Source of the DNA: an uncultured Methanosarcinales archaeon
GTDB taxonomy: Archaea; Nanobdellota; Nanobdellia; Woesearchaeales; GW2011-AR4
DNA length: 64,000 bases
Assembly (NCBI GenBank): GCA_964650285.1
Contig: CAZYSP010000004.1
Span: forward strand, 354 to 64,353
Direction of reading: 5' to 3'
Shown one piece after another: positions 6,618 through 63,606 of the stretch (position 1 is the stretch's first letter; each line of letters opens with the position of its first letter). A program made the translations under genes and the position numbers. The notes under the pieces were generated by a model. That model saw only the letters and a program-made list of their open reading frames with translations, was not told the DNA's origin and searched no databases.

Positions 6618-8687
6618 TTAGTTTTTTCTTTTTTCTTTTAATTTGTTGATATGAACTTCATCAGGAATTGTTGTTCTGTCATAAGCAATTCCGTTTCCGA
6701 TTGGTTTCCATCCCTCTTCCTCGGCACGAAAACGTAAATGCTCACCTATTGCTTCTATTAAAACATCTTTAGGTATTTCAGAAAATTTTCCGGAATCTAC
6801 TGCCTTTTTTTCAATATATGATGGAAATACCTTAAATCCGGTACGTTTGTCTTTCTCTAGAGCCCTATCTACAAACTTGTTTAATGAATTACCTAACCTT
6901 GATTTTTGCTGTTTTTTCGGAATAGGATGTATTTTTTCACTTGAGTCATTGGATTCAAATAATTCGACCAATTTTTTCAATTGGGATTTATAAAGTTTGT
7001 TGCCTTGGTTTAGGTCAACATATAAAGTAACTGCGTTTGTTCTTTGGCCTAAAATTTCTACCGAAGCTGCTCCACGACGCCCTTTACCAATGATGTCGTT
7101 TGGGTAGATCTGACCAAAAACATCAATTGCTGTATACAATACCTTCTCCAACTGGTCTTTAGGCACAGTTAGTTTAGCTAATCTTCCACGAAGTACAGAC
7201 CATGCTGCTAAATGTTCGGGGTCAGATATATTCTTCTTTATATCACTTTTAAGAAATCCTATATCCTTAACATCGTCAAGTAATCTGATTGCATCTTTAG
7301 TTAGCGGTTTTTTGAGAGCTGTTGTTAAAACATCTTTTAAATAATTAGGGTTATCTAAAACTCTTGATCCACAAATTTCAGAATCTGTAGAAATAATCAA
7401 TTCTAGATCCTTTTTACCGCGTGGAAAACCTATACTGAGATTTCCTCTTACATCAATTGGTATATAGAACTCATGAAATAATCCCCCTTTCCTGATTGTT
7501 GAATAATGTTTACCAATATTGACTGGACATAAATCGATTAATCCGATTTCTCTTGAAATTTTGTCAATTTCCTCTTTATCAAAAGTAAGATTTTGAAAAT
7601 GATAATATTTGGAATAATGAGTTTTTTCTTCTAACCCCCCACATTTCCGCTCGTACATTGCAAGTACTGAATGGAGTTTTTTTGTCAATTTCCTTTTACT
7701 ATTATTTAGGACAGTTAATTGACTACTATATTTTTGGTCGATTTTTTCACTTAATTTGACCTTTATTTTTAAATTTCTAATATCATTGTTTAATTTGTTT
7801 AATTCAATAGCATCGTTTCTTGCTGCTTCTGAGATTTCAGAATATTCCATTTCGAAAAGATTTTTATAAAATGAATTTTTTCTAGAGTTCCAGCTCAATC
7901 TAGAAAGTCTTCCTCTTTCCTCATCTATCACATCTTTTCTGAATAAAATTCCTTCAAATTCGTATACAGCGTAATCAAGATGTGATTTTAACTTGTTTCC
8001 TTTGTAGATGTAAACTCCTAACTTTGTTTTAATATTATCCCTTAAATTCTCTCGTTGATGGTTCAACTCATTTATTTTTTCGGCTGATTTTATATCTTCC
8101 TTTTTATTGTGAGTAAACTGCAACATGTCATATTCGTAGGAAATTCTAGAATAATTACCAATATCTTCTTTTAACTCATTGAGTAACTCGTCCTTGTTTG
8201 ACTCTGTGAGAGATTTTATAGATAAGACTTCTCCCATACTAAAATTATGGGCTTTGGCCAGGTTTTTTCTTGTTCCTGGAGGCAATTGTTCCCAATATTT
8301 TTCGGTTAAAAAGTGATATGTTTTAATTGCTTCTGGACTTAGGAAATAATTAACTCCCTTTTCTGATTCTTTAGTTCTTGAACTTAGTAAATAATTATCT
8401 CCCTTTTCAGATTCTTCAGTTCTTTCTTCTAATAGGGATGCAAAAGTATACCAAAAATCTTTATCTTGTTTGCCTACGAACGTAGAATAATCAGATTCTA
8501 AGCTATGTACAATATTTTCCAATTTGTTTTGAGGAGGAGATGCTAAATCTATACTTCCCCTATATTCTATCACTGGCGCATTATCTCTAAACTGCTTTAA
8601 AGAAGCTTCTTTCATTACTCTAAGTAGAGAATCAACTTTATGTAGACGTTCAGTTGGTTTATAGTTTTCGAATAACATAATTATCAC
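6618..8687 (-). CDS. Large hypothetical protein (ORFan)
   Basis: 689-aa open frame with BRE/TATA-like CGAAAGATTTATA upstream; no recognisable motif. Confidence 0.7.
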   Translation of the reverse strand: MIIMLFENYKPTERLHKVDSLLRVMKEASLKQFRDNAPVIEYRGSIDLASPPQNKLENIVHSLESDYSTFVGKQDKDFWYTFASLLEERTEESEKGDNYLLSSRTKESEKGVNYFLSPEAIKTYHFLTEKYWEQLPPGTRKNLAKAHNFSMGEVLSIKSLTESNKDELLNELKEDIGNYSRISYEYDMLQFTHNKKEDIKSAEKINELNHQRENLRDNIKTKLGVYIYKGNKLKSHLDYAVYEFEGILFRKDVIDEERGRLSRLSWNSRKNSFYKNLFEMEYSEISEAARNDAIELNKLNNDIRNLKIKVKLSEKIDQKYSSQLTVLNNSKRKLTKKLHSVLAMYERKCGGLEEKTHYSKYYHFQNLTFDKEEIDKISREIGLIDLCPVNIGKHYSTIRKGGLFHEFYIPIDVRGNLSIGFPRGKKDLELIISTDSEICGSRVLDNPNYLKDVLTTALKKPLTKDAIRLLDDVKDIGFLKSDIKKNISDPEHLAAWSVLRGRLAKLTVPKDQLEKVLYTAIDVFGQIYPNDIIGKGRRGAASVEILGQRTNAVTLYVDLNQGNKLYKSQLKKLVELFESNDSSEKIHPIPKKQQKSRLGNSLNKFVDRALEKDKRTGFKVFPSYIEKKAVDSGKFSEIPKDVLIEAIGEHLRFRAEEEGWKPIGNGIAYDRTTIPDEVHINKLKEKRKN
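8337..8426. repeat. 45-bp tandem duplication inside the ORFan (15-aa repeat)
   Basis: Units 8337-8381 and 8382-8426 encode RTEESEKGDNYLLSS and RTKESEKGVNYFLSP. Confidence 0.85.
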
Positions 8688-8951: not shown

Positions 8952-9254
8952 ATGGCTTTTAAACAAAGACATCTTACAAAACATGACCGCTATGTTCTAG
9001 AGTTAAGAGACAAGATTAAGCACAAATACGACTTTGTCACTGTTAATGTTAAGGTTGCAGGTAAAAAAAGAAGTCTAGGGGAAATTGATATAGTTGCAAA
9101 GAAAGGCAACAAGGTTGATTTGTATGAGGTTAAGTGCAGCCATAGGATTGTAAAAGCCAAAAAACAGCTGAAAAGAATGAAAAGGCTGATGAACCTGGAT
9201 AATTCAAGAGCATATTTCTATTGCGGAAGCTCAGAGTGTTTGGTTAATGTTTAA
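8952..9254 (+). CDS. Small PD-(D/E)xK nuclease-like protein (YraN/Mrr-like)
   Basis: GEIDIVAKKGNKVDLYEVKCS. Confidence 0.75.
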   Translation: MAFKQRHLTKHDRYVLELRDKIKHKYDFVTVNVKVAGKKRSLGEIDIVAKKGNKVDLYEVKCSHRIVKAKKQLKRMKRLMNLDNSRAYFYCGSSECLVNV

Positions 9255-18353: not shown

Positions 18354-18433
18354 CTTATGTCGCAAATCAAACCGGTTATTTAAACATTATTATAACATTA
18401 TAGATCTGTGTATACAAAATCAATAGAAACAGC

Positions 18434-18619
18434 TTACTCTTTATCTTCCTCTTCGTCTTCTTCCTTTTTTTCTTTCTTTTCTTCGTCAGCTTCGTCGTAG
18501 CCTTTCATAAACCCTGCTTCCTCAGGGCTTATCTCTCCTCCGTCCACTAGCTCTTCTCTGCCTTCCTCATCGTATACTGTCTCTTCCTCTTTTTCCTCAC
18601 TTTGTTCTTCTTCAGGCAT
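18434..18619 (-). CDS. Small highly acidic protein
   Basis: 61 aa, Glu/Asp-rich with an ordered core (YDEEGREELVDGGEISPEEAGFMKGY); TATA-like element upstream. Confidence 0.7.
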   Translation of the reverse strand: MPEEEQSEEKEEETVYDEEGREELVDGGEISPEEAGFMKGYDEADEEKKEKKEEDEEEDKE

Positions 18620-18758: not shown

Positions 18759-19832
18759 ATGATTTCACATAAAAAGTATATTGATATTGCTATAAAGCTG
18801 GCTGAGAAAGGCAGAGGCTATGTAAGTCCGAACCCTCTTGTTGGATGTATAATTGTTAAGAGGGGCAAGATTGTAGGCCGTGGTTATCATAAAAAATACG
18901 GGGAAGAGCATGCAGAAATAAATGCTTTAAAAGCAGCTGGAAAAAAGGCAAATAACGCAACCATGTACGTTAACATTGAGCCTTGTTCTCACTGGGGAAA
19001 AACCAGCCCATGCACAGAAAAAATTGTTGAAGCTGGCATCAGGGAAGTTATTGTGGGAGTAGAAGACCCCAACCCCTTAGTGGATGGGTATAAAGAATTA
19101 AAATTCCGTGGCCTAAAAACAAGAATAGGCATTTTAAGGGACAAAGCAAAAAAACTAAATGAAGCTTATATAAAGTATACAAAGACAAAAAAGCCTTTTG
19201 TAATCCTGAAATTGGCTATGAGCCTTGATGGGAAAATAGCAACCTCTAGTGGTGATTCAAAATACATAACATCCAGGGCAGCTAGAAAATATGTGCATCA
19301 GCTAAGAAATGATGTTGATGCTGTTATGGTTGGAATAAATACAATTACAAGAGATAACCCAATGCTGGATTCAAGGCTTGTCAAAGGAAAAAATCCTAAA
19401 AAGATAGTAGTTGACTCAAGCTTAAAAATATCAGAAAGATCAAAAATTCTTAAAGAACCAAGCAAAGTCATAATTGCAACAACAAAAAAAGCACCCAGAA
19501 AAAAGATAGATAAATTACAGCATAAAGGTGCTAGGATAATAATATTAAATCCAAAAAAAGGGCTGGTTGATTTGAAAGAACTGGCAAAAGAGCTCGGAAA
19601 ATCTGAAATAGCATCTGTTATGATAGAAGGAGGCGCAGAATTAAGCGGAAACGCTATAAAAGAAGGAATTGTAGACAAGCTTTTGATATTTACTGCACCA
19701 AAGATAATTGGCAATGGTTTAGGGCCAATAAAAAATCTGGGCATTAAAAAAGTCAACAAAGCCATCAAGCTAAAGAACATTTTAACAAAAAAGATAGGAA
19801 AGGACTTTCTGGTAGAGGGAAATTTAAAATAA
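18759..19832 (+). CDS. ribD: Bifunctional riboflavin deaminase/reductase
   Basis: PNPLVG, HAE, EPCSHWGKTSPC, SLDGKIA, IEGG. Confidence 0.97.
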   Translation: MISHKKYIDIAIKLAEKGRGYVSPNPLVGCIIVKRGKIVGRGYHKKYGEEHAEINALKAAGKKANNATMYVNIEPCSHWGKTSPCTEKIVEAGIREVIVGVEDPNPLVDGYKELKFRGLKTRIGILRDKAKKLNEAYIKYTKTKKPFVILKLAMSLDGKIATSSGDSKYITSRAARKYVHQLRNDVDAVMVGINTITRDNPMLDSRLVKGKNPKKIVVDSSLKISERSKILKEPSKVIIATTKKAPRKKIDKLQHKGARIIILNPKKGLVDLKELAKELGKSEIASVMIEGGAELSGNAIKEGIVDKLLIFTAPKIIGNGLGPIKNLGIKKVNKAIKLKNILTKKIGKDFLVEGNLK

Positions 19833-19856
19833 AAAAAGAGTTTTGTCAAATAAATA

Positions 19857-20008
19857 GAGCCAAGTTATTTCTAATATAGGGGAGGTGGGTGGGAAAAATC
19901 ACCAAATGATATTAATTAAAATGTTGTGTATCATAACCAAATAATATCTACAAAATGATATTAAGATGCAACATTTTGTCTAAAGTCCGCTCTGGCATAG
20001 CTTGGCTT
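19857..20008 (+). ncRNA. Unknown structured RNA/element, copy 1
   Basis: Closing stem GAGCCAAGTTAT/ATAGCTTGGCTT; GGGGAGGTGGGTGGG (19879-19893); N20; AATTAAAATG...CATTTTG; CTAAAGTCCGCTCTGGCA. Confidence 0.7.
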
Positions 20009-20078
20009 AATGTCAAATTAATCGATAAGCTCATAAAAAAAGAAAACTATAAAAACCCCCTATTTAAACTACAAACAG

Positions 20079-25986: not shown

Positions 25987-26040
25987 AACAGCCCCCAAAC
26001 AAGCTATTCTTGGATTTGATGTTTAAATAGTTTTTGTTTT

Positions 26041-26187
26041 GATTAGCTGTGCCTAATTTAGGGGAGGTGGGTGGGAAAAATAAAGCAACGACTTCAATTA
26101 AAATGTTGTGTATCATAATCAAATGATATCTACAAGATGATATCAAGATGCAACATTTTGCCTAAAGTCCGCTCTGGCACAGCTATC
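26041..26187 (+). ncRNA. Unknown structured RNA/element, copy 2
   Basis: Closing stem TAGCTGTGCC/GGCACAGCTA; G-motif 26061-26075; N20 26076-26095; core 79/84 nt identical to copy 1. Confidence 0.7.
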
Positions 26188-26231
26188 GTCAATAACAAAA
26201 TATAAATACCAGCTAAAGAAATTCAAACTTT

Positions 26232-26561: not shown

Positions 26562-27006
26562 TTCTAAAATTGCAACCTTATGCCAGATTGAAGGATTGAG
26601 TTGTTTCGGCTGCTGCGGAAATGATTACAGCCATAAAAAAAAGCTGATGAGAGACATAAGAAAAAATACATTTGAGTTCAAAAAAACTAATTCAGTTAGT
26701 TCTTTCATGACCAGAACTACAGACTTAAGATCTTCTGGTATTTGCGCTAATGTTGTTTTCAAAGATGGAAAATTTTTCTGCCCAGGACATCCTACATTGC
26801 ATTATGGCAGGGATTATAGGGAGATAGATCCGGATTGTGAAAGAGATAAAGATGACGGATGCAAAGCTTATATTTTATTTCAAAAGTGGAGCAAAGAAAA
26901 GCAAAAACAATTTCTGGATTTTATCAAATCAAAAAAACTGGATAGCTATATTTATTCTATAAAGATGGACAATAATTCTTTGCTGAAAGAGTTTGAGAAA
27001 AAATAG
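26545..27006 (+). CDS. Cys-rich protein, YkgJ-like Fe-S/Zn cluster candidate
   Basis: CQIEGLSCFGCC...C...CPGH...C...C. Confidence 0.6.
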   Translation: MTKPVNSKIATLCQIEGLSCFGCCGNDYSHKKKLMRDIRKNTFEFKKTNSVSSFMTRTTDLRSSGICANVVFKDGKFFCPGHPTLHYGRDYREIDPDCERDKDDGCKAYILFQKWSKEKQKQFLDFIKSKKLDSYIYSIKMDNNSLLKEFEKK

Positions 27007-27078
27007 CGGGGAGAAGATTTGAACTTCCGACCTGAGGGTTATGAGCCCTCCGGGCACTCCTGACTGCCCTACCCCGCT
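27004..27078 (-). tRNA. Initiator tRNA-Met(CAU)
   Basis: AGCGGGG start with A1-U72; GAGGG/CCCUC anticodon stem (three G-C pairs) around CU-CAU-AA. Confidence 0.95.
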
Positions 27079-32346: not shown

Positions 32347-32754
32347 CTAATTCGTTGTGGGTGTCACATACGGTGTTGCACTAACAGGTTGAATTAAGTA
32401 TCTGTCAATAGTTATCTCAATCTCACCTTTTGCATCTTCTAAATTCACATCTTTTAAACTTACGTTACTGACAATTTCAACCAATGCTTTGCGTGTATCC
32501 TCCCCTTTGAGCTCAGGATATCTCTTCTGGAAATCTCGACCTTGGAATCCAAACAATTCATCATCAGAATAGAATGAAATTCCTTTTTTTGGGATAATAT
32601 CTTTACCTATCTGTCTTAATTCAATATTCTGCCCTAGGTCCACTAATCTGTAATCTTCAGGATAATCTCTCAAGTCTAAATAAAATTCATCAAGACTTTC
32701 CGCTTCCGGAGGTAATGTCTCACCAATCATATCGATTAAATCTGAAAGTTCCAT
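32347..32754 (-). CDS. Hypothetical protein
   Basis: 135-aa ORF, acidic, no motif recognised. Confidence 0.6.
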   Translation of the reverse strand: MELSDLIDMIGETLPPEAESLDEFYLDLRDYPEDYRLVDLGQNIELRQIGKDIIPKKGISFYSDDELFGFQGRDFQKRYPELKGEDTRKALVEIVSNVSLKDVNLEDAKGEIEITIDRYLIQPVSATPYVTPTTN

Positions 32755-38021: not shown

Positions 38022-38111
38022 CCAGATATAGAATTTTTAGAATGTATATAAGTTTTTCTAGATATACCCACTAAACAAAAACCTTTATAAAACCAAAATA
38101 CCTACTAGCTA

Positions 38112-38379
38112 TGGGCTAGGCTGGTGTACTGGTCCTACACTGTAACTCTAAACGGACCTTATGAGAGGGCTGAAGCCTGGAAAGAGGCATTTGCTTAGCT
38201 TAGTGGTCTTGATTTCAACGTTGAGGTTCTGTCCTCTTGGGCTGTATTTTTTGGAAATCAGTCAGGATGGGAACATAGCAGCTGTAACCTTTTGATATGG
38301 TGCTTAGGGGGTAGCGGAACTGAGGAGAAATCAAGGTAAGCTGCTTTGCTTTGCTTGTGTCCATTTCCAGGCGCGCCCA
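38112..38379 (+). ncRNA. Signal recognition particle RNA (apparently lacking helix 6)
   Basis: GGGCUAGGC 5' end, UGUAA Alu motif, GGUCC/GGACC loop-loop pairing, helix 5 arms CCUGGAAA/UUUCCAGG, helix 8 CAGG-AUG-GGAA-CAU-AGCAG; TATA at about 38085. Confidence 0.92.
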
Positions 38380-38421
38380 CTTATTTTTCTGATTAGGCAT
38401 TATAAAAATACAAAGAAAAAA

Positions 38422-38477
38422 GTCCTCAAAAATTCCAAAGGAATTTTTGGGACACCAAAAATCGCAAAGCGATTTTT
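38422..38477. repeat. Tandem mini-hairpins (REP-like / possible terminator)
   Basis: CAAAAATTCC-AAA-GGAATTTTTG and AAAAATCGC-AAA-GCGATTTTT between convergent SRP RNA and cupredoxin genes. Confidence 0.7.
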
Positions 38478-50127: not shown

Positions 50128-50144
50128 GTTGACTTTAAATCAAC
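50128..50144. promoter_or_regulatory. Inverted repeat GTTGA-N7-TCAAC near the grpE-dnaK promoter
   Basis: GTTGACTTTAAATCAAC. Confidence 0.45.
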
Positions 50145-50243
50145 GAAACTATGGTAACATCAACTTATATTTAAATATTTCTGTTCTAGAGTATATAAAT
50201 AAGCAAAACATTAATAAATAAGTGTATCTTTAAGGGTTTTATC

Positions 50244-50365
50244 GGGCTTTGCCAGAGCGGACTTTAGTCAAAATGGGCATTTTTAAAAAACAAAAAATGC
50301 AAGCATTTTAATTGCACATTTAGCCTGATTCTACCCACCCACCTCCCCTAAAATTGGCAAAGCCC
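50244..50365 (-). ncRNA. Unknown structured RNA/element, copy 3
   Basis: Perfect 11-bp closing stem GGGCTTTGCCA/TGGCAAAGCCC; G-motif (rc 50334-50348), N20, shortened inner stem, CTAAAGTCCGCTC. Confidence 0.7.
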
Positions 50366-50367
50366 AG

Positions 50368-50781
50368 ATGTTTAAAATGAGATACGTACACAAAATAACA
50401 ATAATGAACCTAAGGAAGCCTGTGCATAAGAATGTTAACCAGGAACTGCAATGGTTGGGGAGTTCTTTAGGCTTGTTTAATTTAAGGGATAAGGATAAAA
50501 GTTGTTTTAGGGTTTTTATTGAACTGGTTAAGAATGCAAAAAAAGGTGTTCCCTTGTCAAGCGACGAATTGGCTTACAAACTTGGTTTAAGCAGAGGTAC
50601 AGTTATCCATCATATTAACAAATTACTTGATTCAGGTATTGTCGTGCAGGTTCATAAAGGCTATATTCTAAGGGTTGGAACTTTAAGAGAACTAATAGAC
50701 GAGGTTGAAAAAGATCTTAGAAGGACATGCGACGACTTAAAAAAGATGGCAGAAGAGATTGATCAGAGTTTAGGGCTTTGA
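50368..50781 (+). CDS. Winged-helix transcriptional regulator (TrmB/ArsR-like)
   Basis: SSDELAYKLGLSRGTVIHHINKLLDSGIV. Confidence 0.82.
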   Translation: MFKMRYVHKITIMNLRKPVHKNVNQELQWLGSSLGLFNLRDKDKSCFRVFIELVKNAKKGVPLSSDELAYKLGLSRGTVIHHINKLLDSGIVVQVHKGYILRVGTLRELIDEVEKDLRRTCDDLKKMAEEIDQSLGL

Positions 50782-63216: not shown

Positions 63217-63606
63217 ATGAAAAAAATATTTTTATTTGTTTTTTTGGTTGCAGGAATAATTGCTACCGGCTGTACACCGCAGGTACAAGATAATCCTGAG
63301 CCTTCAGAGCTTGATGATTTTGCTAAATGTCTGAATGAAAATGAGTTAAGGATGTACGGCCAATATACTTGTGGCGTATGCAGAAAACAAAGGGAGCTTT
63401 TTGGCTCTTCTTTCCATTATGTAGGGGAAATAGAATGCCATCCTGAAGGAGAAAATCCGCAAACACAACTTTGTCTGGAAAAAGATATTATGAAAACTCC
63501 AACATGGATTCTTGAAAAAGATGGTGTTGAGGTTGATAGGCTTGAAGGATACCAGACTTTAGAAACTTTATCTGAATTTTCAGGATGTTCTATTGAAGGA
63601 ACATGA
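63217..63606 (+). CDS. Thioredoxin-like lipoprotein
   Basis: Lipobox ATGC; YGQYTCGVC...Q..LFG; TPTW. Confidence 0.8.
   Translation: MKKIFLFVFLVAGIIATGCTPQVQDNPEPSELDDFAKCLNENELRMYGQYTCGVCRKQRELFGSSFHYVGEIECHPEGENPQTQLCLEKDIMKTPTWILEKDGVEVDRLEGYQTLETLSEFSGCSIEGT

Follow-up and report, generated by a model that had tools for sequence, protein, structure and literature searches.

A small structured intergenic element in marine DPANN archaea, probably a family of mobile DNA

Three copies of an intergenic element in the window

The DNA analyzed here is a stretch of 64,000 nucleotides (nt) from contig CAZYSP010000004.1 (assembly GCA_964650285.1; below, the window), in which exactly three copies of a short, structured intergenic element are found: c1 at 19857-20008 (+), c2 at 26041-26187 (+) and c3 at 50244-50365 (-). 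An earlier note on this DNA had guessed at a DPANN archaeon as the host, which was borne out, and had put the element forward as either a stand-alone structured RNA or a small mobile unit. [quoted passage not shown]

Distances of 6 and 24 kb separate the copies, which are surrounded by housekeeping genes and found in both orientations; only mechanical open reading frames (ORFs) overlap them, and all three are located upstream of, and co-oriented with, a gene (ribB, an ORF of 109 amino acids and grpE, respectively). The 15-mer GGGGAGGTGGGTGGG, for which 0.15 occurrences would be expected by chance, is found three times in the window, once in each copy, and is followed in c1, c2 and c3 by a 20-nt spacer, by AATT and then by a stem AAAATG...CATTTT of variable length. 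The shared architecture described previously, with its coordinates, motifs and fixed spacer, was confirmed. Column identity among c1 to c3 averages 77%, with c1 and c2 differing at many positions, and a covariance model run without filters over the window yielded no fourth copy. As the earlier note had pointed out, the downstream genes of c1 and c2 keep their own TATA boxes after the element, TATA-like boxes being located between each of these copies and the respective gene. The closing stem of c1 spans 14 positions, two of them G-U pairs and one a mismatch. The coordinates of all parts are listed in Table 1.

Table 1. Positions of the three element copies and their parts in the window
Feature	Position	Strand	Remark
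G-rich motif GGGGAGGTGGGTGGG, c1	19879-19893	+	exact match
G-rich motif GGGGAGGTGGGTGGG, c2	26061-26075	+	exact match
G-rich motif GGGGAGGTGGGTGGG, c3	50334-50348	-	exact match
3' motif CTAAAGTCCGCTC, c1	19980-19992	+	exact match
3' motif CTAAAGTCCGCTC, c2	26162-26174	+	exact match
3' motif CTAAAGTCCGCTC, c3	50255-50267	-	exact match
c1, whole unit	19852-20010	+	148 bits; bounded by adjacent 8-bp direct repeat
c1, A-rich box AAATAG	19852-19857	+	precedes closing stem; unit ends in TAA
c1, closing stem (terminal inverted repeat), 5' arm AGCCAAGTTATTTC	19858-19871	+	pairs with 19994-20007
c1, closing stem, 3' arm GGCATAGCTTGGCT	19994-20007	+	
c1, inner hairpin (long type) AAAATG...CATTTT	19918-19977	+	
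c1, direct repeat TGTCAAAT	19844-19851 and 20011-20018	+	candidate target-site duplication
c1, alternative A-rich repeat ATAAAAAAAGA	19829-19839 and 20033-20043		other candidate duplication
c2, whole unit	26038-26193	+	160 bits; between two divergent TATA boxes
c2, arms TAGCTGTGCC / GGCACAGCTA	26044-26053 / 26176-26185	+	10 bp
c2, inner hairpin	26100-26159	+	
c3, whole unit (short-hairpin type)	50236-50371	-	133 bits; between grpE (-) and helix-turn-helix (HTH) regulator gene (+)
c3, arms GGGCTTTGCC / GGCAAAGCCC	50365-50356 / 50253-50244	-	10 bp
c3, inner hairpin	50309-50270	-	

Distribution and anatomy of the family

An exact scan with the 18-mer CTAAAGTCCGCTCTGGCA through one genome for each of 185,579 species returned nine genuine copies, in four metagenome-assembled genomes (MAGs), three of them titled Woesearchaeota or Nanoarchaeota and one Methanosarcinales; two further matches, in bacteria, were due to chance. 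At least seven further genuine copies came from a metagenome scan, the pattern of which had an N within the G-run, so that most of the matches listed were poly-G artefacts at contig ends. Covariance-model searches of related loci (designated below by labels beginning with L) added four more. The aligned set comprises 23 distinct copies, scoring 49 to 160 bits with the covariance model, all of them from marine Woesearchaeota/Nanoarchaeota MAGs and metagenome contigs; the search of other DPANN MAGs that had been suggested, carried out with the model and with motif scans, thus extends the family there. The RibB gene of the window, with its two upstream element copies, is also present on several marine metagenome and MAG contigs. 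Among IMG/VR viruses, PLSDB plasmids and INPHARED phages, no element was found, only chance matches to short motifs.

Two of these contigs deserve separate mention. L013 (CAZTBE010000004.1), from a MAG titled "uncultured Methanosarcinales archaeon," carries the element in flanks that are 88% identical (translated) to those of the DPANN contigs L012 and L109, and is probably, judging by this similarity, a DPANN contig misbinned into a Methanosarcinales MAG. L010 (DAOVKD010000023.1, 7.4 kb) represents a local hot spot, where a 4-kb stretch of housekeeping genes (Sua5-like, amidohydrolase, ScpA and S19e) contains three copies, each with an extra outer inverted repeat of a different sequence.

Across the family, the element measures 95 to 190 bp and reads, from 5' to 3', A-rich box, 5' arm, linker WAATTTA, GGGGAGGYGGGYGGG, 20 nt, AATT, inner hairpin, G-N, CTAAAGTCCGCTCT and 3' arm. 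The A-rich box is semiconserved (AAAGTAG or AATAAG-like). The arms are 9 to 14 bp long. While the pairing of the closing stems was confirmed, their sequences do not differ as freely as had been thought: for the most part they are one conserved inverted repeat, with a core of GGCTKTGCC in the 5' arm and GGCAMAGCC in the 3' arm, extended by one to six variable outer pairs. The 20-nt segment has a loose consensus of its own (AAGAAKCAY..AAWT..T.AATT), and on that ground its interpretation as a guide-like variable segment was rejected. The inner hairpin comes in a mini form, with a 5-bp stem and a 4-nt loop (L012 and L016), in a form of roughly 40 nt, GCATTTTTT...AAAAAATGC (c3 and others), and in a form of roughly 60 nt (c1, c2 and others), with other variants in L096 and L088. 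Five copies have, in place of TAAAGT, a module of roughly 40 nt with its own 9-bp hairpin, the optional third hairpin.

Short "solo" hairpins with the element's arms were represented by one doubtful case alone, a stand-alone hairpin, TGTGTTTTGCCTT-(11 nt)-AAGGCAAAACACC, between argH and the OTCase gene (L185:2986-3022). Its arms resemble the element arms GCTTTGCC/GGCAAAGC, and the likeness may be coincidental, or the hairpin may be a remnant or the footprint of an excision.

Conserved and covarying structure

That the stems covary had been proposed from the three window copies, and in the larger alignment this holds for the closing stem, the inner hairpin and the optional third hairpin. In the closing stem (P1), 94% of the cells in the 23 copies are paired and 5 of 10 pairs have changed on both sides, far above slid controls, with one position reading G-C (16), U-A (4) or A-U (2). 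At the base of the long inner hairpin, 96.6% of cells are paired, and G-C, U-A and C-G are all found at one position; the sequences of the inner hairpin subtypes are unrelated, with pairing kept in each. The A-U to G-C compensatory change reported for c1 and c2 is present in the distal hairpin (AAUAUC/GAUAUU versus GAUAUC/GAUAUC), and in the third-module hairpin three positions differ between copies, all of which pair (GCATTCGAC/GTCGAATGC, GCATGCGGC/GCCGCATGC and GCATTTGAC/GTCAAATGT).

Folding of the G-rich strand of c1 to c3 gave z-scores of -3.5 to -4.8 relative to shuffles. This strand, already preferred in the earlier note, is the better-folding one throughout, being stabler than its complement in 23 of 23 copies (mean difference, 7.8 kcal/mol), although these do not amount to 23 independent tests, since the copies are related and the G-run contributes. 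The contact previously suggested between GGGUGGG and UCCGCUC is compatible with the alignment (GGGYGGG/UCCGCUC; 94 to 96% of cells paired, with the Y opposite G), but its changes are one-sided only. The 100% conserved motifs lie in unpaired junctions. A helix UUUAG/CUAAA is paired in 82% of cells, with little covariation, and a helix GAGGYG/CRCCUC, joining a Shine-Dalgarno-like to an anti-Shine-Dalgarno-like sequence, was rejected as not general (57% paired).

Covariation in DNA inverted repeats can arise from selection on folded single-stranded DNA (ssDNA), from selection on a transcript or from template switching between the arms, and the present data fit all three sources alike. Because the helices are kept by compensatory change, the G-rich strand would have to fold single-stranded at some step, either as DNA or as RNA.

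At gathering score, Rfam 15 matched only the signal recognition particle (SRP) RNA (38109-38382) and a tRNA-Met (27004-27078) in the window. Permissive searches returned nothing over c1 (E up to 10) or five other loci (E up to 5) except two noise matches of 9 to 12 bits, in agreement with the earlier statement that no riboswitch, ribozyme, C/D or H/ACA pattern could be recognized. Readings of the element as attC-like, as a C/D-box RNA, as a bulge-helix-bulge intron or as a tRNA half were rejected, the sequence features concerned being absent.

Empty sites and direct repeats

At six sites, all three window sites among them, relatives lack the element at the orthologous place. Empty sites of the kind typical of a DNA MITE, which the earlier note had named as counting against an RNA family, are accompanied here by flanking direct repeats. 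The ribD-ribB spacer that contains c1 is 246 nt long in the window versus 46 to 129 nt, without the element, in eight relatives (L177, L179, L181 and L183 to L187), the RibB proteins of which are 76 to 85% identical to that of the window. No copy is present at the c2 site in L177 and L178, which share the flanking genes, and an ortholog of c2 is present in L183 (RibB 85% identical). In L211, the spacer between grpE and the HTH gene that corresponds to the c3 site measures 123 nt and lacks the element.

L211 (ERZ27286507 k119_217426) is itself a composite in terms of similarity: from the grpE end onward it is 98.8% identical to the window's species, and upstream it is ~79% identical and lacks two small genes as well as the element. 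The boundary, near position 2083, looks like a recombination junction between lineages.

In L185 (8263-8420), a perfect 14-bp direct repeat, TGGACAATAACGTT, stands on both sides of a copy inserted between ribA and a small ORF. At this place the window (18365-18434) and four relatives have an empty spacer of 63 to 93 nt, and in these five empty sites the repeat is single-copy, as ..AATAACGTT.., just before the TATA box. The site of L096 is empty in L181. Elsewhere, a 9-bp direct repeat, CATCAGAGA, abuts a 14-bp outer inverted repeat in L010a, a larger unit with a sister copy at another locus of the same MAG (L014); L016 has a 10-bp flanking direct repeat, and c1 has an adjacent 8-bp one that is not significant by itself (null, 5%). 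Overall, direct repeats of at least 9 bp within 34 nt of the arms were found in 3 of 22 copies versus 1.9% of mismatched flank pairs. The gap between repeat and arm spans 5 to 9 nt on the 5' side and 0 to 17 nt on the 3' side, making the 5' limit fairly fixed and the 3' limit variable. The spacers that receive insertions are AT-rich, and the distance to a TATA box is often no more than about 15 nt.

With respect to the second proposal of the earlier note, a small mobile unit that inserts into preexisting hairpins, the empty sites speak for mobility, but the part concerning the target did not stand. Wherever direct repeats mark the limits of the unit (c1, L010a and L185), the variable outer pairs lie inside them, and the pairing therefore travels with the element rather than deriving from a hairpin already present in the target. 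Insertion into preexisting hairpins was rejected for these three copies; the empty sites corresponding to L185 have no hairpin at the insertion point.

A second small hairpin unit, AAAAACC-[inner hairpin]-GGTTTTTGAAAAC, is found in the ribD-ribB spacers of relatives, the spacer in which the window has c1: once in L183 (3078-3140) and twice in tandem in L185 (9876-9965). These units may be terminators, or else another family of hairpin repeats between genes.

Orthologous copies and gene context

The L183 ortholog of c2 has kept its arms and overall sequence, while the "invariant" motifs have decayed to TGTAGGTGGGTGGA and CTAAAGTCTGCTTTGG. Moreover, the interiors of these two orthologs are inverted relative to each other and are clearly sister sequences; the interiors of L013 and L109 are likewise inverted and are, in addition, of different subtypes. 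In the species of the window itself, six to eight contigs that are nearly identical showed no differences in orientation.

The neighbors of 22 copies are unrelated housekeeping genes in mixed orientation. In tandem contexts, three independent loci are in sense and three in antisense orientation, which looks random, and about six independent loci are situated in divergent promoter spacers. One such arrangement hints at a local effect on a promoter. On the other strand, the 5' linker of c3 reads CTAAAATTG (50348-50356) and is placed 21 nt upstream from the HTH gene's conserved start, ATGAGATA (50377); the empty-site relative L211 has TTTAAATA at the position of the linker. From these positions, c3 may supply the TATA box of the HTH gene.

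A palindrome, GTTGATTTAAAGTCAAC (50128-50144, -), is located upstream of grpE and just downstream of a TTTAAATA box in the grpE-dnaK promoter region, and is kept as GTTGATTTAAAATCAAC in the 79%-identical L211. It is a likely operator of the divergently encoded HTH (HTH_20) regulator, and the arrangement of HTH_20 and grpE-dnaK may constitute a heat-shock regulon switch.

A mobile, MITE-like element as the favored interpretation

We regard the element as probably a nonautonomous, MITE-like mobile DNA with structured arms that is moved in trans. It has features of a MITE, being small (95 to 190 bp, against about 50 to 800 bp for MITEs), noncoding and multicopy, with terminal inverted repeats of 9 to 14 bp (about 10 bp or more in MITEs) and with presence or absence at six sites. 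An enzyme encoded elsewhere in the genome would move the copies, which insert into spacers, leave flanking direct repeats and can later decay or be flipped. The G-rich strand would fold single-stranded at some step, either as ssDNA during transposition or as a transcript, and any effects on the host would be side effects, namely, the moving or supplying of promoter elements and the addition of hairpins to transcripts. According to a bulk census, MITEs are present at very high density in a Woesearchaeal genome (PMC11602168); it was the only literature that we found on MITEs or ncRNAs (noncoding RNAs) of Woesearchaeota or DPANN archaea.

Several observations weigh against this interpretation. 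No window gene has a Pfam match to a transposase, integrase or reverse transcriptase, and in the window and about 0.48 Mb of related loci neither an autonomous partner nor any longer element with the same ends was found. Lengths of 8, 9, 10 and 14 bp were seen among the flanking repeats, which do not adjoin the inverted repeats precisely, a pattern that is not the footprint of a single DDE transposase, and no duplication is visible at L096. Copies in one genome are not near-identical, so that recent bursts are not evident in the genome of the window. At the two orthologous sites described above, arms and flanks have stayed as they were while the interior is inverted, which is not explained by simple transposition, and internal compensatory change together with 100% conserved single-stranded motifs is unexpected for an ordinary cut-and-paste MITE. 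As for the mobilizing enzyme, no transposase adjoins any copy, and no RAYT/TnpA-like gene was found in the DNA examined (the window and the related loci). IS6 ends are described as having a GG tip with cTGTt and caaa motifs behind it, and the target repeat of that family as 8 bp long (PMC7986276). The arms of the element loosely resemble IS6/IS5-type ends, a resemblance that we treat as a lead only.

The variable duplication length, imprecise ends, covarying internal hairpins and two interior inversions would in part fit better with a mobile structured RNA, either a SINE-like (short-interspersed-element-like) retroelement of archaea or a new ribozyme-like motif with the G-rich and CCGCUC segments as its functional core, or with recombinase-flipped cassettes that have an outward promoter in the interior; to these two, taken jointly, we assign a small chance.

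A structured ncRNA gene would be a stem-closed RNA of roughly 100 to 190 nt, with a G-rich/CCGCUC contact or pseudoknot, spread by duplication or SINE-like retroposition. Three to four covarying helices, conserved nucleotides in unpaired junctions and the better folding of the G-rich strand in 23 of 23 copies would suit such an RNA, but covariation in a DNA inverted repeat is also possible through ssDNA selection or template switching. The proposed pseudoknot can be paired in 94 to 96% of cells, with U/C variation opposite G, yet it has changed on one side only. While an A/T-rich box is located ahead of most copies, a TATA-like box just before the stem would start transcription inside the element, past the 5' arm, and while a 5' limit that is fairly fixed, a 3' limit that varies and a variable repeat length look more like retroposition than DDE transposition, the window encodes no reverse transcriptase. 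Additionally, the L183 ortholog lost its motifs but was not deleted, the interior is found in either orientation between the same flanks, and sites are empty in close relatives, so that no copy is essential. We consider such a gene unlikely. The stand-alone structured RNA family of the earlier note was not established, given the motif decay in L183 and the seemingly random gene orientation, and nothing so far marks the c1-c3 family as a novel RNA gene with a function.

A REPIN- or IS200-IS605-type hairpin element of ssDNA, the folded hairpins of which a once-per-genome tyrosine (HUH) transposase would recognize on single strands during replication in order to copy the element, strikes us as improbable. 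The frequent compensatory changes in the hairpins are matched in REPIN stems (Bertels and Rainey 2011, PMC3116915). The strand-asymmetric folding fits as well, but the core is asymmetric and is not a doublet of one inverted REP sequence. The outer stems vary, yet pair and travel with the element, as they would in such a system; this class leaves no direct repeats, however, whereas the 14-bp repeat at L185 was verified against empty sites. The absence of a transposase beside any copy would be expected, but the DNA examined contained no RAYT/TnpA-like gene either.

A reading as an invertible, inverton-like cassette, in which the arms would be recombinase sites and flipping of the interior would redirect an internal promoter or other signal between the flanking genes, seems to us quite doubtful. 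The inverted interiors at c2 versus L183 and at L013 versus L109 are what such flipping would produce, but the six to eight near-identical contigs from the species of the window all agree in orientation, the window contains no recombinase gene and the arms measure 9 to 11 bp only. Divergent promoter spacers account for about six independent loci, yet no orientation bias toward genes was observed, and the element is plainly gained, lost and decaying. Read along the C-rich strand, the invariant TTTTAATT stands exactly 20 nt ahead of CCC-R, the spacing expected of an archaeal TATA box and a purine start, and the c3 linker lies where the HTH gene needs a TATA box; TATA-like strings are cheap in AT-rich DNA, however.

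Finally, a cis-regulatory RNA (riboswitch, leader, thermometer or terminator) acting on adjacent genes, suggested by the position and orientation of the three window copies relative to ribB, the 109-amino-acid ORF and grpE, is highly improbable and largely refuted by the orientation data and empty sites, since the 22 copies adjoin unrelated housekeeping genes in mixed orientation, TATA boxes separate c1 and c2 from the genes downstream, relatives keep the same genes without the element and no Rfam match was obtained.

Should the MITE-like reading be correct, its interest would lie in the hosts. The genomes of DPANN archaea are very small, and mobile elements are generally considered scarce in them. 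An element that is gained, lost, flipped and inserted beside housekeeping promoters (riboflavin synthesis, chaperones and ribosomal proteins) would visibly shape genome and promoter change between close relatives and would serve as a strain marker in marine metagenomes. If a folded single strand were the transposition substrate, or if an enzyme drove the flips, this would be a mobilization mechanism not yet described in archaea, and flipped cassettes would amount to a genome-wide set of invertible switches in reduced archaea. More generally, covarying stems and invariant loops in a multicopy intergenic element do not alone prove an RNA gene.

Other features of the DNA

The SRP RNA gene of the window (+, 126 bits) is followed after ~40 nt by a 12-bp perfect hairpin, CCTCAAAAATTCC-AAA-GGAATTTTTGGGA (38424-38452), that is kept in L210 to L212 and may be a processing or termination hairpin. 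Four ORFs of the window, at 6618-8678 (-), 8952-9254 (+), 32347-32754 (-) and 63217-63606 (+), had no Pfam match, one of them encoding 686 amino acids. The DPANN genome of the window encodes complete sets of biosynthesis genes for arginine, purines and riboflavin, an unusual endowment in a lineage that is mostly described as metabolically reduced. A 644-amino-acid protein with Hint/intein-type domains (PT-HINT and a faint Hom_end_hint) is encoded beside argS in L186 (13443-15378, -) and is absent from the window.

Comparison with known systems

With SINEs and plant retrozymes, the element shares the format of a small, structured, nonautonomous unit with variable-length duplications and a variable 3' limit; unlike them, it has no A-tail, and no reverse transcriptase was identified. 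To our knowledge, neither a SINE-like class nor an internal polymerase promoter has been described for archaea. Invertons, such as fimS and the Bacteroides polysaccharide promoters, are likewise short segments with inverted repeats, found near promoters in both orientations between the same flanks, but for the element no recombinase was found in the window and no heterogeneity among the near-identical contigs, and it is itself gained and lost with target duplications.

REPINs with their RAYT enzymes (PMC3116915) are nonautonomous intergenic hairpin repeats served by an enzyme encoded elsewhere, with a single-stranded folded form as the presumed substrate, all of which recalls the present element. 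However, REPINs are symmetric REP doublets, leave no target duplication and are known from bacteria, whereas the element is asymmetric and has at least one verified 14-bp duplication. Three further classes were compared and rejected: PATEs derived from IS200/IS605, which have neither terminal inverted repeats nor a duplication, whereas the element has both; casposon-derived MITEs, which show a 14- to 15-bp duplication at every copy, whereas only L185 has 14 bp and the others have 8 to 10 bp; and integron attC sites (R''/R' core sites RYYYAAC...GTTRRRY at the ends, in cassette arrays), whereas here the ends are GGCTKTGCC/GGCAMAGCC and the copies are scattered among housekeeping genes.

The MITEs themselves (Correia/NEMIS, IS6- and IS5-derived and archaeal ones) provide the comparison on which our favored interpretation rests. 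The element differs from them in its nonabutting repeats of 8 to 14 bp, in the lack of a known parent insertion sequence and in its compensatory internal hairpins, asymmetric single-stranded motifs, modular hairpins and flipped interiors. Like them, it is small, noncoding, multicopy and intergenic, has inverted and direct repeats, is present in some relatives and absent from others, can form a hairpin when transcribed and may have promoter-like ends.

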